Below are positions 1-27,900 of a stretch of DNA of 64,000 nucleotides, one piece after another; position 1 is the stretch's first letter, and each line of letters begins with the position of its first letter. Origin of the DNA: an uncultured Gemmatimonadales bacterium (lineage in GTDB: Bacteria > Gemmatimonadota > Gemmatimonadetes > Gemmatimonadales > GWC2-71-9). The stretch lies in contig CAVYSW010000010.1 in NCBI GenBank assembly GCA_963771275.1, positions 128,001 through 192,000 on the forward strand, read 5' to 3'. Both the position numbers and the translations under genes were made by a program. The notes below the pieces were generated by a model. It was not told where the DNA came from, ran no database searches, and was given only the letters and a program-made list of their open reading frames with translations.

Positions 1-276
1 GCCCTGCAGGCGCGCCGCCGCCAGACGCTGTCCCGCATGGGTGAACGCCGTGTCGATTTCGTCCGCGGCGGCGCCGCTCGCGCTGCGCCGCGCCCGCTGG
101 TGCAGGAACCACCCGATCAGGACGGCGACCGCGCCGCCCAACAGGAGCAGGCCCCCGCGGAACACCCACAGGTTCCAGCCCTTGAGCCCCAGCGCGCCGC
201 CGAGCCACCACACGAGCAGGGCGAACACGCCGTACACGGAGAGCGTAGGTAGCGCGGACCTCACCGAGCGTTGCAT
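1..276 (-). CDS. tssM: T6SS membrane complex protein TssM/IcmF, N-terminal part (runs off left edge)
   Basis: Not in the ORF track. Manual translation from ATG at 276: MQRSVRSALPTLSVYGVFALLVWWLGG...LLLLGGAVAVLIGWFL...DEIDTAFTHAGQRLAAARLQG. Two TM helices, directly downstream of tssL, matching the TssM N-terminus in position and topology. Confidence 0.7.
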   Translation of the reverse strand, partial: MQRSVRSALPTLSVYGVFALLVWWLGGALGLKGWNLWVFRGGLLLLGGAVAVLIGWFLHQRARRSASGAAADEIDTAFTHAGQRLAAARLQG

Positions 277-283
277 GGTGGTC

Positions 284-979
284 TCAGCTCCCCATGCCGG
301 CCAGCCGGGAGATGCCGGAGCGCAGCGACAGGGCGTAGAGCGCGAACAGCAGCAGCGCGAGCCCGAACGCCGCCAGAGCCGACCACTTGAGCCGCGGGAG
401 CCACCGGTCGGGCGTCACCTCGGGGCGCTCGCCTGGCGGCAGGCGCCACGCGGCGGCGAGGTCCGTCGTGGTCCCCCGAATGCGCTGGATCTTCTCGTCG
501 GTCGCGGTCATCAGCGCCTGGATGTCTCCCCCGCCCCCGGCGCTGTACTGCCCGCGGAAGCCGAGGATCAGACACAGTTGATAGACCTCGAGCACGTCGG
601 CGATGTCGTCGGAGTTCTCGCGCGCGAGCAGCCCGCGGAGATTCTCGAAGAACGTGCGGCCGCCCATGTGGTCGCCGAAGACCTCTTCCTGCAGCGGCAT
701 CCGCGGCCACTCCGCGAAGGCCGGCAGGCTGGAGGTGAGCACGGCTTCGTCGAGATACACGACGAACGCGTACACGGCCAGGCCGACCTCGGTCCCGCCG
801 TACCCCAGCTGTCGTGCCTCGCGATCGGCCTGCGCGATCAGCTGCTTCGCGTGGTTGCGGAATGCCGTGGCATCGGCCGCCACGTCGCGCCCGGCGCGGA
901 GCCGCGCGCCCGCCGTGAACGCTTCCTGCAACCGCAGGGCGAGCTGGCCGCGGCGGCCGGCTGGACGCGGGTCGCTCAT
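284..979 (-). CDS. tssL: T6SS DotU/TssL family protein (single C-terminal TM, no OmpA domain)
   Basis: Motifs YAFVVYLDEAVL, W..MPLQEEVFGDHMGG.TFF and VLEVYQLCLILGFRGQY are typical of DotU. Confidence 0.93.
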   Translation of the reverse strand: MSDPRPAGRRGQLALRLQEAFTAGARLRAGRDVAADATAFRNHAKQLIAQADREARQLGYGGTEVGLAVYAFVVYLDEAVLTSSLPAFAEWPRMPLQEEVFGDHMGGRTFFENLRGLLARENSDDIADVLEVYQLCLILGFRGQYSAGGGGDIQALMTATDEKIQRIRGTTTDLAAAWRLPPGERPEVTPDRWLPRLKWSALAAFGLALLLFALYALSLRSGISRLAGMGS

Positions 980-1012: not shown

Positions 1013-2356
1013 TCAGAGAACGGCAAGGACGTTGAGCTCCTTCACGCGGGTGGCGTCAGGGGTGTAGATCCCGATCTCGCTCGACTGCACAATGGCCTGC
1101 CAGCACGGTCCATCCAGCGTCACCGCGAAATAGTGATGCTGGCTGCGCACCGGTATCTCCGCCGGCGGCACGGGGAGGTGCGTGAGCCCCAGGGCCGGCA
1201 GGCCTTCCTTCACCAACCGCACGATGTGGCGGGCCGAGCAGACTTTCAGCAGGCGCGGCAGCTGGACGGCCGCGTTGGGGTCGGGTGACTCGAGCGCCAC
1301 CTCCAGCACCCAGCGCGCGGGGTGAAGGGCGCGGTTGTCCCCCACCGTGCCCGTGAACAGAAACTCGCGGGAGCGCGTGAGCGGGACGGTCACGTACCGG
1401 CTGGGCGCCACGACCTCGAGGTTCGCGCGGATCCACCGGTCCAGCTCCGTGAAGCACTTCTCCAGGTGGTCGTGGTCGTACACGGGCAGGTCGCGCGGAC
1501 TGGTATCGAGCGTGAACGTGCACAGCGCGCCCGCCAGGCGGGCGAGGTCGGTGTAGACCTGCTCGGGGCTGGAGCGGCGTGAGGTCAGATGGTGGCGCAG
1601 GGGCCCGAGGCTCGAGTGGATGGTATGCAGCATCCACAGCCGGGCAACCTGTTGCGCCGGATCCGCGGCGTCCGAGCCGCCTTCCCGCCGGGTGCCGGCC
1701 AGGGCGTCGCTCTGCGCCGTCAGGATGTCGGTCAGGCGGGCCAGCAGGTCGATGATCCGGCGGCTCGCGCCGATCTGGAGACATGGCGGGATGTACTCCA
1801 GATCGTACACGAAGTGCCCCGACCCGTCCCGCTTGACGCGGGCGATCGGCAGCTGGATCGCATCCGTGTCGCGCTCCGATTCGAGCACCAGCGCAAAGTT
1901 CTTCCGGCCGACGCGCACGACCTGGCGTCCGACCCCGGTCGTCTCGTCGCTGACCGCCTCGTCCTCCCCGACGTATCGCACCCCCTCGGACTCGCCGGCC
2001 TCCATCGCGCAGTTGCGGCTGCCGTCCCGGTAGGGGGGCACGACCAGCATCACGACACGGCTTTGCTCGGTGGGCAGGAACAGCTCGCGGATGTCGCGCG
2101 AGGCGGGCACCGGATCGCTGTCCGGGAAATGAAACGCCAGGCCGTCCGGCATCACGCCCCGGGCGTGCACCAGCGCGACGACACCGTTGTGCAGGGCGTC
2201 CGCGTCCAGCTCACAGCCCAGCAGCCCGTACGGAGTCGGGAACAGGTGCTGGAGGGCGAAGCCGATCGCGTTCTCGAAATACCGGTTCTGGGCCTGGAAG
2301 TGATGCTGGGCGAGATGCATCCCCTCGCTCCAGACCAGCCGCGACAACGGTCTCAT
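1013..2356 (-). CDS. tssK: T6SS baseplate protein TssK (paralog 1)
   Basis: N-terminal LVWSEGMHLAQHHFQAQNRY, ARGVMPDG, YIPPCL, P.YDHDHL..CF, LPALGLTHLPVPP. Confidence 0.93.
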   Translation of the reverse strand: MRPLSRLVWSEGMHLAQHHFQAQNRYFENAIGFALQHLFPTPYGLLGCELDADALHNGVVALVHARGVMPDGLAFHFPDSDPVPASRDIRELFLPTEQSRVVMLVVPPYRDGSRNCAMEAGESEGVRYVGEDEAVSDETTGVGRQVVRVGRKNFALVLESERDTDAIQLPIARVKRDGSGHFVYDLEYIPPCLQIGASRRIIDLLARLTDILTAQSDALAGTRREGGSDAADPAQQVARLWMLHTIHSSLGPLRHHLTSRRSSPEQVYTDLARLAGALCTFTLDTSPRDLPVYDHDHLEKCFTELDRWIRANLEVVAPSRYVTVPLTRSREFLFTGTVGDNRALHPARWVLEVALESPDPNAAVQLPRLLKVCSARHIVRLVKEGLPALGLTHLPVPPAEIPVRSQHHYFAVTLDGPCWQAIVQSSEIGIYTPDATRVKELNVLAVL

Positions 2357-2580
2357 CGTGCTCTTTCAGGCTCCGGAGCGAGGGTGCGTCGTGCGCGGCG
2401 GCCGGGCGGGCCCGCCGCCGCCGAAGGGCGCCCGCAGACGGGGCCCGGTCTCGGGGCCGCATTTGCGTACGTCGCATGGCGTCCGCTATGATAACACGTG
2501 CTTCCGATATTATGCGGTCCCGCCCCGGCAGCAGCAACCGTCCCGGGGGAGTTGACGCGCACACAGGGAGTCCGACGGCG

Positions 2581-4200
2581 ATGACCGGCGCCGAGTTCCA
2601 GGCCCGCTACCAGCTCCTCGCGGAGATCGCGACCGGGGCGGTGCGAACGCTGATGGCCCGCGATGCACAGGGCGTGCTCGTCATGGCCCACTTTCTCGGG
2701 CCGGCGGTGGGCGAAGGCACGCAGCGCCTCATCGCCGCGGACCGGCTCCCGGCTCAGGCCCGCGGGGTCCTGCTCGAGCGGTGCGTCGTGGATGGCCACG
2801 TCGTGCTGATCACGCGGGTGCTCGATGGCTTCGTGGATTTCGGCTCCTGGCTGCGGGCCCAGGGGGGCACGGCCGCGCCCGTGGTCCAGCCACCGGCCGT
2901 GACCCAGCCGACCCCGGTCGCCCCGGCTCGCGAGATGCCACCGACCCCGCCGGCGCCCGAGGTGGCTGCGCCGCCCGCCCCGCCGGCCCCGCCCGCGAGC
3001 GGCGAGTTCACGCAGATGTTCGGGCGCCCCGGGGGGGCGGCCGCCGCGCCACCGCAGGCGACGGCACCAGCGCCGGCGGCCGCCACCGTGCGGCTGCCGA
3101 CGGTGGAGCGATCCGCCACGCCGCCGCCGGTGACGCCGTCTCCCCCGACCGTTCCCTCGGCACCCCAAGCCGGCGAGTTCTCGCAACTGTTCGGTGCACC
3201 GCAGATCCCTGTGCCGCCGCCCGTTGCGCCCCCCATCTCTCCGACGCCGCCGGAGGCCGCCGAAACCGTGCGGCTGCCGACCGTCGAGCGGACCGTCGAG
3301 CCTCCGGCGGCGCACGGTGGCGAGTTCACCCAGCTGTTTGGCGCGCCAAGCGTCCCGAAGCCTCCTGCGGGGCCGCCGGCTGCTGCGCGGCCGGCGCCGG
3401 AGCCTCCGCGAGCCGGGCCGCCGGTTGGGCAGGGGCCGCCCCCGCCTCCCCCACAGCCCTCGGTGCCGCCCCCCGCCCCGGTCGCGATGCCGCCCGCCGC
3501 GACGCCGCGTTCGGGTCCGCGCATTATGTGGAAGGGCGCCGCGGCGCCGCCACCCGTCGCGCCGCCATCAGCCCCCGTCGCGCCCGAGCCGCCCCGCCCG
3601 GCACCGCCGGCGGCCGCGCCGGCGGCCCCGCCCCCGCGACCCCCGGCGCCACCCCCCCGACCTCCGGCTCCGCCGCCCCGGCCCGTCGCCCCCCCTGCTC
3701 GGCAGGACGCCCCGGGTGAGTTCACCAAGCTGTTCGGCGCACCGAGCGACGGGAGCCCCACCGCACCGCCGCCGCGGCCCGCGCAGGCGGCCGGCGAGCC
3801 GCCGTTCGGTCGGGGGGGCCGCGACTATCGGGATGCGCTCGATAGCCTGCATCGGCCGCTCGACGAGCGGCCCGCGCCGGAGCCGCCGCGCGCGCCGCCA
3901 CCCAGACCGCCCATGGAGCCCGAGTTCCCCAGAGACCTCCCTCCCGGGTTCCCGCGCGACCCGCTGCCTCCGGTGGCCCCCCCGGCGGCCGAGCGCCCGC
4001 CCGTGGGCCTGTCGCCGGGCGGTTTCACGCAGGTCATTGCCGGCAGGTCCCAGGCAAAGCTGGGCGATGCCGCGGCCGAGTCGGCGATGGGCCAGCCCGC
4101 GGCGGAAGCCCCGCCGGGCATGCCGCGCTGGCTCGTGATCTCGTTGGTGGTGATCGGGGTGCTCGCGCTCGTCCTGATCGTCGCGATCGCGGTGTTCTAG
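2581..4200 (+). CDS. Pro-rich membrane-anchored protein with degenerate kinase N-lobe-like domain and GEFTxxFG repeats
   Basis: ORF 2476..4200; probable ATG at 2581 after GGGAG. About 100-aa globular N-terminus, long Pro/Ala region with 4-5 repeats, C-terminal TM helix (WLVISLVVIGVLALVLIVAIAVF). Confidence 0.7.
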   Translation: MTGAEFQARYQLLAEIATGAVRTLMARDAQGVLVMAHFLGPAVGEGTQRLIAADRLPAQARGVLLERCVVDGHVVLITRVLDGFVDFGSWLRAQGGTAAPVVQPPAVTQPTPVAPAREMPPTPPAPEVAAPPAPPAPPASGEFTQMFGRPGGAAAAPPQATAPAPAAATVRLPTVERSATPPPVTPSPPTVPSAPQAGEFSQLFGAPQIPVPPPVAPPISPTPPEAAETVRLPTVERTVEPPAAHGGEFTQLFGAPSVPKPPAGPPAAARPAPEPPRAGPPVGQGPPPPPPQPSVPPPAPVAMPPAATPRSGPRIMWKGAAAPPPVAPPSAPVAPEPPRPAPPAAAPAAPPPRPPAPPPRPPAPPPRPVAPPARQDAPGEFTKLFGAPSDGSPTAPPPRPAQAAGEPPFGRGGRDYRDALDSLHRPLDERPAPEPPRAPPPRPPMEPEFPRDLPPGFPRDPLPPVAPPAAERPPVGLSPGGFTQVIAGRSQAKLGDAAAESAMGQPAAEAPPGMPRWLVISLVVIGVLALVLIVAIAVF

Positions 4201-5570
4201 CGTCCGCGCGTGGCTTCGCGCTGCGGCTCCGGCAGCAGGATCACCAGCTCCAGCTCCACGTCGGGAAGATCGGCCGGGGCGTAGACCGCGACGTTGCGGG
4301 CGAGCGCGATGCCATCCCAGTCGGTCCCCTGCCGGTTCAACTCGAAATACTGGAAGTCGAGCTTCACCGGGATGGCGGAGGGTGGCTGGACGACGTGCGT
4401 CAGCTCCACGCCGGGCAGTGCCTGCTTGATCAGCCGCTCGAGCCGGTCCGCCGCGCTCAGCTTGAGCAGGCGCGGGGCGCGCCGCACGTCGGCCACCTTG
4501 GCGCTCGAGCGCACCGCGAGGAACATCTGCGGTGCCTGGAGGTAGCGGTCGTCGTCCAGCGCGGTCGCGTAGACCGACGGCGACACCAGGCGGAGCGGCA
4601 GGGACACGCAGCGCTCCGGCACCACCGTGGCCAGCAGCTCGCGGAGCTGCTCGTCCAGCGTGGTGAAGCATCCGGCCAGGTCGGTGTGGTCATACGCCGG
4701 CAGATCGCGCGGGTGAATCCGGCCGGAAAACGTCGTGAGCGCGCCCGCGAGCCCCATCATTGCCTCGTACAGTGCCGCCGGATGCGCGTGCCGCTGCTCC
4801 AGCAGATGCCGGGCCATCGGCAGATGCGAGTTCACCGTGTAGAGCAGCCAGAAGCTCGCGACGTCGCCGACGCCGAACTCGGCGAGGCTCTGCTTGCGCT
4901 GGCGGCGCCCGCCCGCGATCGTCGCGCTCTTGGCCGACAGCACTTCGACCAGCCGGCGTACCATCGCGACGAGGTACTCGCTGGCCGAGAAGTCGATCAG
5001 CGGCGGCACGAAGTGGGGGTCGAGCTCGTAGTCGCCGGTGGGGAGCCGGCGGACCCGCGCCACGGGGAGCGCGGAGCTTCCCTCGAGCGACTCACCGCCC
5101 ACCAGAATGCGGAAGTTCTTCCGCGCCACCATCACCGGCTTCTCCGACAGGCCCGTGTTCTCGTCCCGCCGCGTCACGACCTCGGCGCGGTAGCGCGTGC
5201 CGGCTTCCAGCTCGGCGGTCGCCACGTTGTGCCCGCCGACCCGGTATTCCGGAATCGTCAGGTGCACGTCCAGCGTCTGCTGGTCGGGGTCCCAGCATTC
5301 CTTGAGCGGTCGGGGGGGCGGCGCGGCATCCGCGCCCGGAATGTCGAACGACAGCCCGTCCGGGAACACGCCGGCGGCGGCGGTGAGCGCCAACGATCCG
5401 GCGGCGAGCTCCTCGCGGTTGATATCGAGCCGGTGGAATCCCCACGGGAAGAACGTCAGCCCGGCAAGCCGGAAGCTCAGCAGATCCTCCAGGTAGCGAT
5501 CCTGAATCTGCAGGTGCTGGGGAGTAAGCAGCACACCCTTGGACCAGAGAACCGGCTGCAGTTGGCGCAT
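4197..5570 (-). CDS. tssK: T6SS baseplate protein TssK (paralog 2)
   Basis: Start trimmed to ATG 5570: MRQLQPVLWSKGVLLTPQHLQIQDRY; also GVFPDG, FVPPLI, PAYDHTDLAGCF, ALPGVELTHV..PP.AIPVK..FQYFEL. Confidence 0.93.
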   Translation of the reverse strand: MRQLQPVLWSKGVLLTPQHLQIQDRYLEDLLSFRLAGLTFFPWGFHRLDINREELAAGSLALTAAAGVFPDGLSFDIPGADAAPPPRPLKECWDPDQQTLDVHLTIPEYRVGGHNVATAELEAGTRYRAEVVTRRDENTGLSEKPVMVARKNFRILVGGESLEGSSALPVARVRRLPTGDYELDPHFVPPLIDFSASEYLVAMVRRLVEVLSAKSATIAGGRRQRKQSLAEFGVGDVASFWLLYTVNSHLPMARHLLEQRHAHPAALYEAMMGLAGALTTFSGRIHPRDLPAYDHTDLAGCFTTLDEQLRELLATVVPERCVSLPLRLVSPSVYATALDDDRYLQAPQMFLAVRSSAKVADVRRAPRLLKLSAADRLERLIKQALPGVELTHVVQPPSAIPVKLDFQYFELNRQGTDWDGIALARNVAVYAPADLPDVELELVILLPEPQREATRGR

Positions 5571-5662
5571 GAGGCGATAACCTAGCGCCGGAGGGCATGA
5601 AGTCCAGTCTGGCGTGCCGTCGGGCTGGCGCGTGCCCCCGAGGGCTGACATGTTTCCGCGGC

Positions 5663-7140
5663 ATGCCGTCGCGCGCTGAAGTCCATCTCGATGCGGGGGT
5701 TGCGCCCCGGCCCGACTCGCCCGGCGCTCCGCTCCCCGATCAGCTGCTGCCGATCGCGCTGGTCGGCGACTTCAGCGGCCGCACGCATCGTGGCCCGGTG
5801 GTCGTCGGGCCGCCCCTGGAGGAGCGGCGGCCCGTGCGGGTCGATCGCGACACGCTGGACCAGGGGCTTGCGCACTTCGCGCCGGAGGTCCCGCTCGCGC
5901 TTGGGGGCACGGCGGCGGACGCGGCCGTGCGATTCTCGGCGCTCGACGATTTCCACCCGGATGCGCTGCTCGCGCGGTTACCGGTGTTTGCCATGCTGCG
6001 GTCCATGCGCGAGCCCGCGGGCGAGCGCGGTGGGGGGGGACGGCGGACCCCGGCGCGCCCGTCGCGCCTCCGAGCCCGCTCGACCTGGTGCATCAGGGTG
6101 ACCTGCTGAGCCGTGCGGTCGCCGCGACGCTGGGGGAGTCGGGAGGGGGTGCCGACCCGCTGCAGGCGTTCGTGCGGCGGCTGGTGGCGCCGCATCTCGT
6201 GCGGGAGGCCGGGCCCGCGGAGCGCGTCTGGCGAGCGCAGGTGGACGCCACCGCCGGCGCGTTGCTGCGCGAGATCCTCCACGGTCCCGGCATCCGCGCG
6301 CTCGAAGCGCTGTGGCGCGCGGTCGACTTCCTGGTGCGCCGGGTCGACAGTGATGCCGAGCCCCCGTTCTATCTCGTGGACGTGAGCCAGCCGGAAGCCG
6401 CCGCGGACTTGGCGGCGGCCGGCCGTGTCGAGGACACGGCGCTGGTCCGGCTGCTCGGCGGTCCCCCGGGCGGGCGCTGGGGCGCGATCGTCAGCGACTT
6501 CTCGTTTGGCGCGGACCCGAACGACGCGATCCTGGCCGGGCGTCTGGCGGCGCTCGCCCGATCGGCCGGCGCGCCGTGGCTGGCCGCGGCAAGCCCGGCG
6601 CTCGCGGGCTGCCCGTCGCTGGTGGATCATCCCGATCCCGCCGCATGGGACCGGGCGGTTCCCGCGGCATGGGGCATGCTCCGCCGGCAACGGGAGGCGG
6701 CCTGGCTGGGGCTGGCGCTGCCGCGGTTCCTGCTGCGCCTGCCGTACGGTCCTGACACCGAGCCGTGCGCGCTACGCGACTGGCGGGAGACGACCGAGCC
6801 GCCGCGGCATGATCAGTATCTCTGGGGCAACCCCGCCTTCGCCTGTGCCTTGCTCCTGGCAGGGCGTCTCGGGCCGGGTGGAACCTGGCGTACCCCTGGT
6901 GGGGTACTCGACATCGGAGATCTCCCGCTGCACCTCAGCGCGGCGGATGGAGAAACCCGTGCGCAGCCCTGCGCCGAGGTGCTGCTGTCGGAGCGGGCGG
7001 CGCACCGGCTGCTCGACGCTGGCCTCATGCCACTCGTGTCGCTCAAGGACCGCGATGCCGTACGGCTGCTGCGGTTCCAGTCGTTTGCGGAGCCCGCGGC
7101 GCCGCTTGCCGGACCGTGGGGTGGTGCCGGGCGCGCTTGA
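5663..7140 (+). pseudogene. TssB-TssC-like sheath fusion protein, split by a frameshift at a G8 tract (6032-6039)
   Basis: 5' ORF is TssB-like (IALVGDFSGR...FSALDDFHPDALL..LPVF). 3' ORF is TssC-like (ALEALWRAVDFL, LALPRFLLRLPYG, YLWGNPAF, AEVLLSER...GLMPL). One extra G joins them through the linker GGTADPGAPVAPPSPLDL. Confidence 0.75.
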
Positions 7141-22302: not shown

Positions 22303-24183
22303 CTACTTGGCCTGCGCCAGCCCCGCGGGAAGGAACCGCCAGGCGTACTCGACCGGCACGGCCTCGTTCTGCTGGTACTGCGCGCCGCGGTCCGCCGTCG
22401 CGAATCCGGCGTGGTTGACCCCGACGACGGCGAGCTTCGTGCCGAGCAGCGGGCCGCCACTCGAGCCGCCGATCCCGCCCAGCGTGTGGTAGGAGATCGA
22501 GTTCGACGTCACGCCCGACACGCTCATGTTCCCGCTCACGTCCGGCTGCAGCTGCTTCGCCTGCACGAGCGCATCCAGCTCGGCGGCTCCCGCCACGGCG
22601 TTCACGGTCTGCAGCAGCAGGAACACTCCCAGATCGGACTGGACCAGCGCCTGGAGCTGCTTCTCGTCGTCCGGCAGCCCCCGGAGCACGGCCTCGAGCC
22701 CGGTTTCCCGGGCGAAGGCGCCGACGGCCCGCTGCACCGCCGCCTGCACCTGGTCGCTCAGCGAGGCGTCCACGAAGCTCCCGACCCCTCGCCGCTGCGC
22801 CGTGACCTCGGTGCCGCCCGGGTAGGCCAGCATCACGATGTCCTCACCGGCCACTACCTGCTGGCCCCGCGCCAGCGGCAGCACCGGCACCCCTTGCGGG
22901 GTCCGCGTCGTGCGGAACAGGCCGAGGTCGTGCTCGCGTGAGGCCTGCACCGTCTGGGCGTCGACCTCGTACATGGCCCCCGGCGGAAACGCGATCCGCC
23001 ACCCCGCGATGGCCGGCTTGAACACGATGTCGCCGTTCTTGCCGAGGTTCAGCGTGGCCTGCTTGATCATCTCGGCGCTGGCAAACGGCAGGTCGACGCA
23101 GTGACGGTTCGTGAGTACCCAGCCGGCTGCGTTGATCAGGAAGCCGGTGCACTGCGAGGTCGTGAGCAATGCCAGATGGTCGTTCTGATCGGTGCTGAGC
23201 CCGACCTTGCCGTCCTGGGTTCCCCGAATCCGCAGCCAGCCGGCCTGCTCGTTGAACCAGCCGATCCGGAACTCGATGAGCCCGACACCCGCGGCATAGC
23301 GCTGCGTCACCGTGGGCCCGAACCGCCGGTCATCCTGGACGGCCTGGCGCTGCTGGGCGATCTCCTGCTTCTGGCGGTCGAGCTCCGCCCGGTTCTGCTG
23401 GAGATTCTGCGTCAAGGACTCGGCCTGGCTTTGCCACTGCGTGGCCGTCGAGGCGAGCTGCGAGAGCTGCTGCTCCAGCGCCGCGCGGGCGTCGCCTTGG
23501 GAGCGCAGCTCGCTGCTCATCGCCGTCAGCTCGCCACGCAGCGCCGCGGCCTTGCGCTCACTCAGCACGAACACCAGCCCCACGGCTACGGCCCCGGCGA
23601 CCGCCACGAGGATGAGCGCGACCTTGAGTCTCCGACTGGCCTTCTCCTGCGCCAGCTTGACGAACGCCTTCATCACCGCCGTCTGGCTCGGGCGGCCGCT
23701 CGTCGCGGCCGCGGCCGCCTGGTCGCGGGCCATGACGTACAGGCCCGTGAGTCCTGAGCCGGAGGAGGACCCGCCACCCGCCAGTGGAGTCGCGGGCGCC
23801 TTCGCGGCTTTGGGCGGAACGTAGGCCGTGGCGGGGGAGCCCCACGCCGCGGGTATCGGGGCGGTTGCCATGCCCTCGTCCGCGACGACCTCGAACTGGG
23901 CGGCGGGCCCGTTCGGGCCGAACATGATCGTCTGGCCCGCCCGGATCTCGCATTCCTTGACCTGGCGGCCGTCCACGAAGGTGCCGTTGCGGCTGTTTTC
24001 GTCCCGCACGTAGAACCGGCCGCCGACCTCGTAGAGCGTGGCATGATGGCCCGAGACCACCACCTCGCTGGGGCTGAACTGCAGCGTGCAGTCCGGGCTG
24101 CGCCCCACCGCCACCTCGAAGCCCGTGAGCTCGAAATCGGTCCCAGCCCTGCTTCCCGACGTGAAGACGAGCCGCCCGCGCAT
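22303..24183 (-). CDS. FHA domain - TM - coiled coil - trypsin-like (S1) serine protease
   Basis: Start trimmed to ATG 24183. FHA motifs VGR, VSGHHA, DENSRNGTFVDG; TM helix; Gln-rich coiled coil; protease triad CTGFLI...LTNRHCV, HDLGL, GGSSGGPLL. Confidence 0.85.
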   Translation of the reverse strand: MRGRLVFTSGSRAGTDFELTGFEVAVGRSPDCTLQFSPSEVVVSGHHATLYEVGGRFYVRDENSRNGTFVDGRQVKECEIRAGQTIMFGPNGPAAQFEVVADEGMATAPIPAAWGSPATAYVPPKAAKAPATPLAGGGSSSGSGLTGLYVMARDQAAAAATSGRPSQTAVMKAFVKLAQEKASRRLKVALILVAVAGAVAVGLVFVLSERKAAALRGELTAMSSELRSQGDARAALEQQLSQLASTATQWQSQAESLTQNLQQNRAELDRQKQEIAQQRQAVQDDRRFGPTVTQRYAAGVGLIEFRIGWFNEQAGWLRIRGTQDGKVGLSTDQNDHLALLTTSQCTGFLINAAGWVLTNRHCVDLPFASAEMIKQATLNLGKNGDIVFKPAIAGWRIAFPPGAMYEVDAQTVQASREHDLGLFRTTRTPQGVPVLPLARGQQVVAGEDIVMLAYPGGTEVTAQRRGVGSFVDASLSDQVQAAVQRAVGAFARETGLEAVLRGLPDDEKQLQALVQSDLGVFLLLQTVNAVAGAAELDALVQAKQLQPDVSGNMSVSGVTSNSISYHTLGGIGGSSGGPLLGTKLAVVGVNHAGFATADRGAQYQQNEAVPVEYAWRFLPAGLAQAK

Positions 24184-24351
24184 ACCAAGACCTCCGCTAA
24201 GCCGTTGCGGGTTCGCAACATCCCGGACCAAGCCGCCTACCCAATCTACCGGGCGCCCTGCATCGCGCCAGAGTGAAACCTCGGCGGACTCGACGCGGGG
24301 CCCGATTCTTTCTATCCTATGGGGTCTGAAGGCGACCGAGGGCACCAAGCG

Positions 24352-27300
24352 ATGAGCGTCAGCATTACCTGCACGCGGTGTGGCCAGCCGATGAGCGCGA
24401 GCGACCGGTTCTGCGCCAACTGCGGCACCGGGAACCCGATGGTCGGTCGACAGGCCGATTCCAGTGGCTCCGGGTCGGTGTGGGATGCCGTGCAGCAGTC
24501 GCTGCGGGTGGCGACCCGCGGGGAGTTCGACATCGCCGGTGAGTTGGGCCACGGCGGGATGGCCGCCGTCTATCTGGCGCACGACATCGGGCTCGACAAG
24601 AAGGTCGCCATCAAGGTCATGGCGCCCGCCCTCATGGCCGACCCCAGCATGATCGGCCGGTTCCAGGACGAAGCGCGCACCGTCGCGAAGCTCGAGCACC
24701 CCAACATCGTGACGGTGCACGCCGCCCGGCAGGCGGGGGGTCTGTACTTCTTCGTGATGAAGTACGTCGTCGGGCGTGACCTCGACTCCATCCTCGAGCA
24801 CGGGCCCCTGCCCCTGGCGGTGGTCCAGGCCGTGATCTATCAGGTGGCGACGGCGCTCCAGTACGCGCACGGCCGCAATGTGATCCACCGCGACATCAAG
24901 CCCAGCAACGTCATGGTCGACCTCGAGGGCAACGCGGTGGTGATGGATTTCGGCATCGCGAAGCTGCGGGGGGCGCGCGGCCATACCATGGTCGGCGCGG
25001 CGATCGGCACGCCGCCCTACATGAGTCCCGAGCAGTGCCTCGGCAAGGAAGTGAGTCCCGCGTCCGACCAGTACTCGCTCGGGATGGTCACCTACCATCT
25101 GCTCACCGGCCGGCCGCCGTTCAGCGGCGAGCCGATCCCGGTGATGCGGCAGCAGATCGAGGTCGACCCGCCGCCGATCGAGCACCTGGCGGAGGGCCCG
25201 TGCCCGCCGAAGGTCCGCGACGGGGTCCGCCGCATGCTGGCCAAGGCCCCGGAGGATCGCTGGGGGTCGGTGGTGGAGGCGGCTCGCGCGCTTGGAGGGC
25301 ACCCGGTCGCGGTCGACGACCCGTTGCGCGACGAGATCGCGCGCCTGTCTCAAAGCGGCGGGTTCATTCCGCCGACGCAGATCTTCACGACGCCGCTCAG
25401 CCCCTCGCCGCAAGTCGGCTGGACACCCGGGCCGGTCGCGCCCACCGTGCCGATCACGCCGACCCCCTCGGCGCCCGTGACGCCGCCGGCCTCGGTGCCC
25501 TTCGCGGCGCCGCCATCGGCTCCCGTGACCCCGCCGTCAGCCGCACCGCTCACGCCGCCGACGGTCCCATACACGGCGCCCCCGGTGATCCAGCCATCGG
25601 CACCGCTCACGCCGCCGCCGTCGGGCCCGCTCACGCCGGCACCCGTGCCACCCTTCACGCCGCCGCCCATGGCGCCGGCCACGGTGCCGTACACGCCGTC
25701 GATGGCGGGTCCGGTGAGCACCCCCCCGAGTGGTATCGGCGAGCTGCCCCCAATGGCGCCGCCCGTGGTGCCGGCCACCGCGCTCGTCCCACCGGACGCG
25801 CTGCAACCCGCCGGGCTCGCCGCGGCGCCCGCCACGGCGCCGATGCCTGCGGCGGCGCCGAGTCGCCCACGCACGGGCCCCGTTGCCGCGGCCGCGCTCA
25901 GGCCTCAGCCCAAGCCGCCCTGGCTGCTGATCGGCGGCGCGGCCGTGGCGGTCGCGGCCGTCGCGGTCGTCGTCATGCTCGCCTTGCGGCAGCCCGCCAC
26001 GAGTGACGTGACGCTCGCGGTGGCGCCGCCCGAGTTGAATCTTGGCGCGGGGCAGGAAGGGACATTGTCGATCGACGGCGTGCCTGGTGGGACGCCGGTC
26101 GCGTGGCGCTCGAGCGACGATGCCGTGGCCACGGTCGATGCGGACGGACGGGTCCGGGCCGTGCGGGAGGGCCGGGCGCTCATCATCGCGTCTGCCGCCG
26201 ATCGCGCCGATACGGCGGTCGTGACGGTCGCGCCCGGAGCCGTGGCCGAGCCGCCCCGGACGGCGCGGCTCGAGGTTCGCCCGGCCGACACGCAGGTCCA
26301 GGTCGGCGACGCGGTCACGCTGCGGGTGGAGGCGTTCGATCAGGGCAACCGCAGCATGACGGCACCCCAGGTCCGCTGGCGGTCGTCCAACGAGCGGGCC
26401 GTGGCGGTGACGCAGGCGGGGACCGTGACGGGGCGGGCGGTTGGGTCGGCCACCGTGACCGCCGCGGCGGGCGGCGTGGAAGCCAGCGCCATCATCCGCG
26501 TCCTCGCCGTCGCCCGGCCCGCGGACACCACCGGGCCGCCGCCGCCCCCACGGCGCGTGGCGGTCGTCGCCGTCACCCCACCGCGCATCGAGCTGGACGT
26601 CGGCCAGACCGCCGCGGTCATCGCGGAGGCGCGGGACGCGCAGGGCAGGCCGTTCGACCGACCGATTGCGTTCCGATCGGACAACGCAGGCGTGGCGAAC
26701 GTGTCGGAGCGCGGCGAGGTGCGGGCCGTGGCACCGGGAAACGCGGTGATCGTGGCGGCGAGCGACGGGATCGAGGGCCGCGCCATGGTCCAGGTGCGCG
26801 CGCCGGCACCACCGCCACCGCGGGACACCGCCGTGGCTCCGGCACCCGCGCGAACGGTCACGTTCGCCGGCATCGCGGCGGGGAGCGCGCATACGTGCGC
26901 GGTGGCGTCGGGGGATGAGGCCATCTGGTGCTGGGGCGGAAACGACCGAGGACAGATTCAGCCCGGCTCCGGACAGGGAGCGCGCGTGCTCCAGCCGGTC
27001 GCCCTGGCGGGGACGGCGGCCGAGCTCGCGGCGGGCGCCGAGCACACATGCGCGCTGGCCGACGGCCAGGTGACGTGTTGGGGGCGCAACACCGAAGGGC
27101 AGTTGGGCACGAGCGACCTCAAGGCCACCCGATACACGGTTCCCGGCCTGCGCTTCGAGGAGATCAGTGCCGGTCCGGCGCACACCTGCGGCCTCACCAC
27201 CGCCGGCCAGGTCTACTGCTGGGGCAAGAACGACATGGGGCAGCTGGGTGACGGGTCCAGCAGCCGGCGTGCAAAGCCAACGCCGATCGCGGCGAGCGCC

Positions 27301-27900
27301 AAGTTCACGGCCGTTACCGCCGGCGGGTCGCATACCTGCGCGCTGCGCGCGGACGGCGCCGCGGTCTGCTGGGGCAGCAACTGGAGCGGGCAGATCGGCA
27401 GCGGCATGATCCAGTCATTGCCGTCGCCGACGGGCGTGGGAGGCGGCGTGAAGTTCCGCGAGCTGGTGGCGGGTGGCGACCACACCTGTGGTATCTCGAC
27501 TGCCGGCAAGCTGTTCTGCTGGGGCAAGAACTCGGCGGGCCAGGTAGGTGACGGTTCCAAGAGCCAGCGCAGCGCCCCCCAGGAGGTGCAATCCAAGGAG
27601 AGCTTCACGCTGGTGGTCGCCGGCAAGGAGCACACCTGCGCGCTGGCGTCCGGCGGCCGGGCATTCTGCTGGGGACGCGGCCGGGAAGGCGAGATCGGCG
27701 ACGGCACCACCCAGGATCGCACGACGCCGACGGCGGTTCGCGGCAACGAAGCCTTCGCGTCGCTCGCTGCCGGCGACCAGCACACGTGCGGGGTTACGAA
27801 GGCGGGCGCGGTGCTGTGCTGGGGAGCGAACGCGGGCGGACAGCTCGGGTCGGGTGGCAACCAAGCGGCCGCGGCGCCCGCTCCGGTCAAGCTCCGCTGA
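24352..27900 (+). CDS. Hanks-type Ser/Thr kinase with Zn ribbon, Pro/Thr-rich linker, TM, three Big_2 Ig-like domains and RCC1-repeat propeller
   Basis: CxxC..CxxC N-terminus; LGHGGMAAVY, VAIK, HRDIKPSN, DFG, GTPPYMSPE; WRSS...VATV repeats; seven AG..HTC....CWG.N..GQ repeats. Confidence 0.92.
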   Translation: MSVSITCTRCGQPMSASDRFCANCGTGNPMVGRQADSSGSGSVWDAVQQSLRVATRGEFDIAGELGHGGMAAVYLAHDIGLDKKVAIKVMAPALMADPSMIGRFQDEARTVAKLEHPNIVTVHAARQAGGLYFFVMKYVVGRDLDSILEHGPLPLAVVQAVIYQVATALQYAHGRNVIHRDIKPSNVMVDLEGNAVVMDFGIAKLRGARGHTMVGAAIGTPPYMSPEQCLGKEVSPASDQYSLGMVTYHLLTGRPPFSGEPIPVMRQQIEVDPPPIEHLAEGPCPPKVRDGVRRMLAKAPEDRWGSVVEAARALGGHPVAVDDPLRDEIARLSQSGGFIPPTQIFTTPLSPSPQVGWTPGPVAPTVPITPTPSAPVTPPASVPFAAPPSAPVTPPSAAPLTPPTVPYTAPPVIQPSAPLTPPPSGPLTPAPVPPFTPPPMAPATVPYTPSMAGPVSTPPSGIGELPPMAPPVVPATALVPPDALQPAGLAAAPATAPMPAAAPSRPRTGPVAAAALRPQPKPPWLLIGGAAVAVAAVAVVVMLALRQPATSDVTLAVAPPELNLGAGQEGTLSIDGVPGGTPVAWRSSDDAVATVDADGRVRAVREGRALIIASAADRADTAVVTVAPGAVAEPPRTARLEVRPADTQVQVGDAVTLRVEAFDQGNRSMTAPQVRWRSSNERAVAVTQAGTVTGRAVGSATVTAAAGGVEASAIIRVLAVARPADTTGPPPPPRRVAVVAVTPPRIELDVGQTAAVIAEARDAQGRPFDRPIAFRSDNAGVANVSERGEVRAVAPGNAVIVAASDGIEGRAMVQVRAPAPPPPRDTAVAPAPARTVTFAGIAAGSAHTCAVASGDEAIWCWGGNDRGQIQPGSGQGARVLQPVALAGTAAELAAGAEHTCALADGQVTCWGRNTEGQLGTSDLKATRYTVPGLRFEEISAGPAHTCGLTTAGQVYCWGKNDMGQLGDGSSSRRAKPTPIAASAKFTAVTAGGSHTCALRADGAAVCWGSNWSGQIGSGMIQSLPSPTGVGGGVKFRELVAGGDHTCGISTAGKLFCWGKNSAGQVGDGSKSQRSAPQEVQSKESFTLVVAGKEHTCALASGGRAFCWGRGREGEIGDGTTQDRTTPTAVRGNEAFASLAAGDQHTCGVTKAGAVLCWGANAGGQLGSGGNQAAAAPAPVKLR

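Follow-up and report, generated by a model that had tools for sequence, protein, structure and literature searches.

Control of type VI secretion systems (T6SSs) by threonine phosphorylation is known from a few Proteobacteria, in which it works through Fha/TagH. In Agrobacterium, PpkA is reported to phosphorylate TssL on Thr14 and Fha to bind the phosphorylated residue (PMC3953482). The locus described here resembles that pathway, and the PpkA–Fha pairs of Pseudomonas and Serratia as portrayed in the same report, in carrying a Hanks kinase within the T6SS locus and in that the likely control point is a threonine on the cytoplasmic portion of a protein of the membrane complex (PMC3953482). It differs from the PpkA–Fha switch in three respects: the threonine motif lies in a loop of TssM and is repeated on an extra protein, which we call X; there are two TssK paralogues; and neither the C-terminal domain of TagH/Fha (PF20232; the E. 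coli control was positive, and a divergent form could escape the model) nor TssJ was detected in any of 38 genomes.

Membrane proteins with dead kinase domains provide the other close comparison. EssB/YukC of T7SSb is described as a single-pass membrane protein of a secretion locus, with a dead kinase-derived cytoplasmic domain and a hub-like role (PMC12599244; 10.1101/2020.05.09.085852). YukC has a pseudokinase domain, a stalk and an extracellular domain (PMC12599244), whereas X is a T6SS protein in which the N-lobe alone is joined to a long linker bearing the motifs, with hardly any outer domain. In the MviN pseudokinase–PknB–FhaA system of Mycobacterium, a dead kinase domain on a membrane protein is reported to recruit a reader once an active kinase has phosphorylated a threonine in its tail, with the N-lobe used for back-to-back dimers; unlike X, this is a full pseudokinase domain on a cell-wall protein, has no repeat array and is not part of a secretion system (PMC12599244). 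The single transmembrane helix and cytoplasmic dead-kinase part of these proteins recur in X, which has no N-terminal hydrophobic segment and for which this topology is the probable one. Their complete bilobal pseudokinase domain does not recur, X having an N-lobe only. In function X comes closest to EssB/YukC and the MviN pseudokinase; having no C-lobe, it stands outside both families and outside the kinases. Bacterial Hanks-type transmembrane Ser/Thr kinases (PknB and PpkA type) share with X the N-lobe fold, a proline-rich juxtamembrane linker and a transmembrane helix, and are its likely ancestor; in contrast to them, X lacks the VAIK lysine, the Gly-loop, HRD, DFG, the C-lobe and a sensor domain. 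A conserved stand-alone kinase N-lobe is unusual.

We found no description of X in a search of the open literature on the motif, two-tssK T6SSs, pseudokinases and TssM phosphorylation, and kinome-atlas tables may list the family; the T6SSs of Gemmatimonadota and Acidobacteriota are barely covered in the literature searched. The Solibacter T6SS is mentioned without the X gene in the accessible parts of two papers (PMC2660368, PMC4239648), and the accessible part of the pseudokinase review mentions neither these phyla nor truncated forms (PMC12599244).

X is encoded in the window, by which we mean the whole stretch of 64,000 nucleotides that was analysed, from an uncultured Gemmatimonadales bacterium; the features are collected in Table 1. 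In addition to the zero matches in Pfam and NCBIfam, PDB sequence searches with X gave nothing significant, PAK kinases appearing only at E of 0.7–0.9. The gene has a GC3 of 0.91 over its first 100 codons, and an independent contig (run X1) covers it gap-free, with four of the five differences within X synonymous. Its stop codon overlaps that of the downstream tssK, beyond which follow tssB, tssC, hcp, tagJ, tssA, tssE, tssF, tssG, clpV and vgrG. No sigma-70-like promoter was found in a scan of the divergent gap beside X. X is kept in T6SS loci and is outside the core Tss families, as an accessory (Tag) component would be, and we conclude that it is a real, so far unannotated T6SS accessory family.

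Table 1. Features of the X locus and candidate partners in the window (positions are those of the window)
Feature	Position	Strand	Basis or remark
tssM, 5′ end	1..276	-	loop motif ATQVL ~865 bases outside the left edge (G000:C10 near 127135)
tssL (DotU), candidate reader of the Thr motif	284..979	-	Pfam
tssK paralogue A (divergent from X), with tssL and tssM downstream	1013..2356	-	Pfam VasE
Shine-Dalgarno-like AGGGAG	2565..2570	+	sequence; 10 nt before ATG 2581
Gene X, 539 aa, putative tail-anchored half-kinase scaffold	2581..4200	+	ORF call; no Pfam or NCBIfam match
Isolated Hanks-kinase N-lobe and next helix (residues 1–95)	2581..2865	+	AlphaFold2, Foldseek, VIA, hhalign
His37, at the VAIK lysine position	2689..2691	+	His in 167/167; hhalign aligns His to K
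Pro/Ala-rich linker, presumably disordered	2866..4125	+	composition; 136 Pro in 420 residues
Motif 1, GEFTQMFG	3001..3024	+	sequence
TVRLPTVER copy 1	3085..3111	+	sequence; not conserved in the family
Motif 2, GEFSQLFG	3172..3195	+	sequence; rare Ser variant
TVRLPTVER copy 2	3265..3291	+	sequence; not conserved in the family
Motif 3, GEFTQLFG	3319..3342	+	sequence
Motif 4, GEFTKLFG	3715..3738	+	sequence
Membrane-proximal motif, GGFTQVIA	4018..4041	+	sequence; family form GPS[ED][FY]TR[IV][IL], mostly 36–59 residues before the TM helix
Predicted C-terminal transmembrane helix (residues 518–536)	4132..4188	+	hydropathy 3.4
tssK paralogue B, convergent with X	4197..5585	-	Pfam VasE; start near the upper end, not fixed
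FHA and trypsin-like protease gene, possible but poorly linked reader	22303..24213	-	start approximate
Intact Hanks kinase with Big_2 and RCC1 domains, candidate writer	24352..27900	+	VAIK, HRDIKPSN, DFG

The AlphaFold2 model of residues 1–95, built with the family alignment as input, has a pLDDT of 88.8 and is predicted to contain the five-stranded sheet and αC helix of a Hanks N-lobe. No Foldseek match to this model reached E ≤ 0.001 (the best was 3e-3), and all 50 of the 50 matches listed are protein kinases; with VIA-align the best match has a Z of 8.5 and an rmsd of 3.3 over 88 aligned residues, and the matches listed are all kinase-fold chains. Sequence support for a kinase origin is modest. 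The N-domain profile aligned by hhalign to the N-lobes of 44 kinases of the genome with a probability of 61% (E of 8e-5), and the acidobacterial members of X aligned to kinase N-lobes with 87% (E of 4e-6). Alignments of kinases were needed, since hhalign of the profile against two single kinases gave nothing. The histidine at the VAIK position, invariant among the relatives of X (Table 1), is also present in 16 of 18 acidobacterial rows, and a tryptophan is conserved in 163 of 167 relatives. HRD and DFG occur in none of the 126 X proteins of at least 250 residues, and after residue 95 the sequence of X turns proline-rich with no C-lobe. X is a lone N-lobe and not a pseudokinase domain. Five related Acidobacteriaceae genomes, in which the tssK pair lies several kb away, have lost even the N-lobe and retain the motifs and the transmembrane helix, and a search for a separate N-lobe gene in them gave weak matches, the five that were fetched being kinases or pieces of kinases. 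The N-lobe is thus dispensable in one lineage, so that the motif array and anchor form the core of X and the N-lobe is an add-on.

When all six frames of the 3.86 Mb genome were scanned with a loose motif pattern, 12 matches came up; GEF[TS]x[LM]FG is present only four times, each time in X. The 126 X proteins together have 282 copies of the strict motif, where shuffled sequences have 0.02. When the centre of the repeat [GS][ED][FY]TxΦF was left free, 447 copies had threonine there in 96% and serine in 2%, with the fuller consensus P-[GS]-[ED]-[FY]-T-[RQ]-[LMI]-[FIL]; the linkers are richer in serine (8.4%) than in threonine (5.5%), yet the centre is nearly always threonine. In 31 proteins from a scan with profile P0019, mostly acidobacterial, it is threonine in 98% of 233 copies. 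All four threonine codons are used at this position and the motif codons vary freely, so that selection acts on the protein and the motif is no DNA repeat. An X protein of the 126-protein set typically carries two to six copies, and X of locus L090 up to 15; the copies have a median spacing of 76 residues and vary in number, and the net charge around them is mostly 0 or −1. Additional phosphosites of the form [DE]xTxx[ILVM] (DxTxxI) were rejected, as they number 11 against 9.9 in shuffles. Two minor linker motifs, [IV]xW[RK] in 17 and [DS]Yxx[RA]L in 29 of the 126 proteins, are found in the window at about 3515–3535 and 3820–3850.

These results agree in part with an earlier note made from the letters of the window. 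It had proposed a kinase N-lobe without a C-lobe, which the structural and hhalign comparisons uphold, and the test of kinase fold that it set for the N-terminus does point to kinases. It had regarded the catalytic lysine as missing; the VAIK lysine is indeed absent, but it is not merely missing, as the conserved His37 stands in its place. All five GxF[TS] motifs lie where the note had put them, and its proposed test of motif conservation comes out clearly in the excess over shuffled sequences. The membrane anchor that it postulated is predicted in 112 of the 126 X proteins. The two TVRLPTVER copies are both at their positions but do not form a family motif, occurring in 0/126 X proteins.

X goes with a particular kind of T6SS. 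Among 301 genomes of the phylum Gemmatimonadota, residues 1–100 of X found a match in 28; two tssK matches occur in 28, all 28 of which carry X, and 28 of the 29 X-bearing genomes have two tssK, counts that overstate independence because the genomes are related by descent. X is present in none of the eight genomes with one tssK match, and a marginal match in G077 was an ordinary kinase and was excluded from the count. The exception is G115 (96% complete), which has X and no match to tssK, tssC or tssM; its X has only degenerate motifs. Genes for a kinase, for a PP2C phosphatase and for a protein containing FHA are found in the vicinity of this orphan (L036:917-10316). Of the 27 other matching genomes, 20 loci were fetched, and 17 show the order tssK–X–tssK, one has the upstream tssK only and two have no nearby T6SS gene. 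With the profile built from 25 X sequences, 463 cluster representatives score E ≤ 1e-10, and 150 of these were listed (the 126-protein set was found with Gemmatimonadota queries). The P0019 scan gave 31 loci, 30 of them labelled Acidobacteriota, in which relatives share the layout around X; T6SS genes lie beside X in 28 of the 31, and in the remaining three genomes a pair of tssK genes is located away from X. In 201 sampled Acidobacteriota, two tssK together with a strong X match were found only in the seed genome, and the 18 with one long tssK match had no X match better than 9.5e-7. In a quick tree of 38 subsampled TssK rows, the two types are split by a branch with both phyla in each (SH-aLRT 99, 94); L101 and L105 are Acidobacteriota despite carrying another label there. 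The earlier note's placing of X antisense between two tssK genes is borne out by the Pfam VasE matches on both sides, and its claim of T6SS linkage by the 28 two-tssK genomes and the 17 loci above. It had also named what would speak against its proposal, namely, a motif that is not conserved, homologues unlinked to T6SS loci or an N-terminus with no kinase-fold match; all three were checked and none was found.

The TssM proteins of the two-TssK loci carry a related motif, A-T-x-Φ-F, in a variable loop that follows RGFY within the cytoplasmic domain. All 43 aligned rows fit a loose pattern (ATQVL in the source genome). In the 34 loops delimited by script, alanine at −1 and threonine are found in 34/34 and phenylalanine at +3 in 33/34, against a shuffle expectation with a mean of 2.0 and a maximum of 8, and in the remaining nine the motif is visible by eye. 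The AT form is absent from the TssMs of all six single-TssK control systems, of which that of G011 has a loose match, STRLF. A scan of 13 other T6SS families for T-x-Φ-F gave no comparable site, the best being TagJ (18/28). The motifs of X and TssM have the T-x-Φ-F core in common and differ at −1, which is F/Y in X and A in TssM; ATxΦF itself occurs within X in 22 copies in 20 of the 31 P0019-scan proteins (0.8 in shuffles) and shows no excess in the 126-protein set, with 2 copies where shuffles have 1.6. In the TssM model the motif forms coil within a GTPase-like domain, in a loop modelled at low confidence and predicted to be flexible, and it shows no confident docking on TssM itself. In E. 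coli, a cytoplasmic loop of TssM is reported to bind a groove of TssL and to be contacted by TssK and TssG (PMC6730261, PMC6300606), which makes these three proteins natural candidates for the reader, on the assumption that the E. coli loop corresponds to the one described here. The link between the threonine motifs of X and TssM is new, and X would be a variant of kinase-linked T6SS control.

A candidate writer is often close by. In 31 of 43 loci tssM is followed by a kinase at a distance of up to 5 kb, and in the other 12 none was seen there; in the window the intact kinase sits 20 kb away. Mycobacterial kinases and FHA domains are reported to prefer threonine with a hydrophobic residue at +3 (PMC3138270), and the X motif fits this preference. 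With an X-only profile, the six best-scoring HRD-bearing kinases of those compared all come right after tssM (E of 1.9e-7 to 2.4e-4), which suggests that X arose from the transmembrane kinase of the locus when the C-lobe and outer domain were lost. An unlinked kinase-like ORF, L139, outscores all locus kinases with this profile (E of 6e-8), and the top rank of the latter may reflect shared phylum. A second kinase-derived piece is found after tssM at L128:5424-6320 (G000:C10:123424-124320, left of the window) and at L035:11616-12239. It is made up of a zinc ribbon flanked by two partial units that resemble an N-lobe, a proline-rich linker and a predicted transmembrane helix, and the T6SS-linked kinases of L120 and L126 have an N-terminal extension that it matches.

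The earlier note had suggested FHA domains as one possible docking partner of the motifs, and here the result goes against it. FHA genes were found in six of 51 fetched loci (two FHA-DUF4123 fusions, three of the FHA-protease type and one beside the orphan X), with further ones in the window and L125, whereas G197, G135 and G066 have no FHA gene in or near the T6SS locus. The FHA-protease of the window was rejected as a dedicated reader, since its closest relatives are in four genomes without the two-TssK system (10 candidates scored per genome, cut-off of 1e-20). FHA genes do not track the two-TssK system and, with TagH undetected, a dedicated FHA reader is doubtful. The TssL proteins of these loci have conserved arginines near the N-terminus, which are a possible phosphate site. 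FHA is fused to DUF4123, an effector-chaperone family, within acidobacterial T6SS loci (L093:14157-15149; L080:12343-13230), and such a fusion could couple effector loading to phospho-threonine sites.

Tentatively, we read X as a docking line of the T6SS, whose TssM-like threonine motifs, probably phosphorylated, would gather the partner of the TssM loop at the membrane complex. X, a lone N-lobe on a long proline-rich linker, would be held at the inner membrane by its predicted tail anchor and would display many TssM-like threonine sites on a flexible tether. The neighbouring Hanks kinase would probably phosphorylate them, and the phosphorylated motifs would then bind the partner that the TssM loop binds, so that X could bring baseplate or adaptor proteins together at the membrane complex and start or stabilise baseplate docking. 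The reader would most likely be TssL or the head of TssK, or FHA adaptors where they are present, and the N-lobe, where retained, may recruit or pair with the active kinase. The docking-line reading is supported by the linkage in all 28 genomes, the conservation of threonine in the repeats, the motif in the TssM loop and the kinases after tssM, and by the orphan X of G115, which has no T6SS match and has only degenerate motifs. Against it stand the absence of an FHA gene that goes with the system, the different residues of X and TssM at −1, the 12 of 43 loci in which no kinase was seen after tssM and the lack of enrichment of ATxΦF in the 126-protein set. A bolder form of the proposal, which we regard as doubtful, is that the two phyla share an undescribed T6SS subtype, defined by two ancient TssK paralogues with no detectable TssJ or TagH, in which phosphorylated T-x-Φ-F on TssM is read by a core subunit (TssL or the TssK head) rather than by FHA, and X is a multivalent membrane-tethered amplifier that recruits the kinase through N-lobe pairing. 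The X family points to a different wiring of T6SS control in two phyla of soil and sediment.

The docking could also be independent of phosphorylation, with Φ-T-x-Φ-F forming a short amphipathic helix that docks straight into a groove of TssL, the TssK head, TssG or the N-domain of ClpV and the threonine serving as a shape contact. The conserved phenylalanines at −1 and +3 make a one-face hydrophobic pattern, no dedicated FHA was found, the presence of X tracks the second TssK, and the YukC–FHA contact of T7SSb is reported to be phospho-independent (10.1101/2020.05.09.085852). We nevertheless consider this scaffold rather unlikely: the scarcity of serine at the motif centre suits reading of phospho-threonine better, kinases lie beside tssM in most loci and X itself appears to be kinase-derived.

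Distinctly unlikely, in our judgement, is that X acts as a decoy or threshold device, its copies soaking up the reader or kinase needed by the single TssM site, so that the system would stay inactive until X becomes saturated in response to a signal. The sequence fits a positive scaffold and a decoy alike. In favour of a decoy, X has several motif copies to the one of TssM, is on the strand opposite tssK–tssL–tssM and so may be regulated apart, and is devoid of catalytic residues. The presence of X in every two-tssK genome, however, looks more like that of a needed part than of an optional brake, and the rather constant distance of the membrane-proximal copy from the transmembrane helix (Table 1) suggests a structural position. 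Phe-rich motifs on flexible linkers, widely spaced and variable in number, could be stickers that associate with one another, or helices that bind lipid; X would then cluster in a patch of membrane that marks the site of assembly, and no one protein would read the motifs. Membrane-targeting helices are typically basic, whereas the motif charge is mostly 0 or −1, and the near-invariant threonine and the single TssM copy point to specific recognition, which makes such clustering improbable. That X is a functionless decayed kinase relic carried with the locus, as its low complexity and the loss of the N-lobe in five related genomes might suggest, is barely credible and already disfavoured by the conserved histidine and tryptophan, the 282 strict motifs where chance gives 0.02 and the spread of 463 representatives over two phyla.

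Several other features of these loci deserve mention. Right after tssM in many Gemmatimonadota loci where TssJ was not found, there is a gene for a PrcB_C-like predicted lipoprotein (L128:6391-6858; also L030, L031, L032, L033, L034, L035, L037, L043, L044 and L089), a possible outer-membrane partner of TssM. A methyltransferase-like gene of ~490–515 aa recurs just before tssB in both phyla (L048:7504-9051, the one copy scanned; L030:12471-13985; L037:12159-13676; L092:11434-12900). The head of TssK_A (window 1016–1411) has class-specific conserved cysteines (C58 invariant and C103 near-invariant, in the numbering of alignment A4) as well as D25 and R27, none of them conserved in TssK_B. Finally, the window carries at 5651–7140 an extra sheath-like gene, TssB-like and then TssC-like, with a frameshift near 6030. 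It is a single fused ORF in L029, L033 and L105, and the run X1 contig differs by a one-base insertion at the frameshift, so that the split may stem from faulty assembly or from variation between strains.
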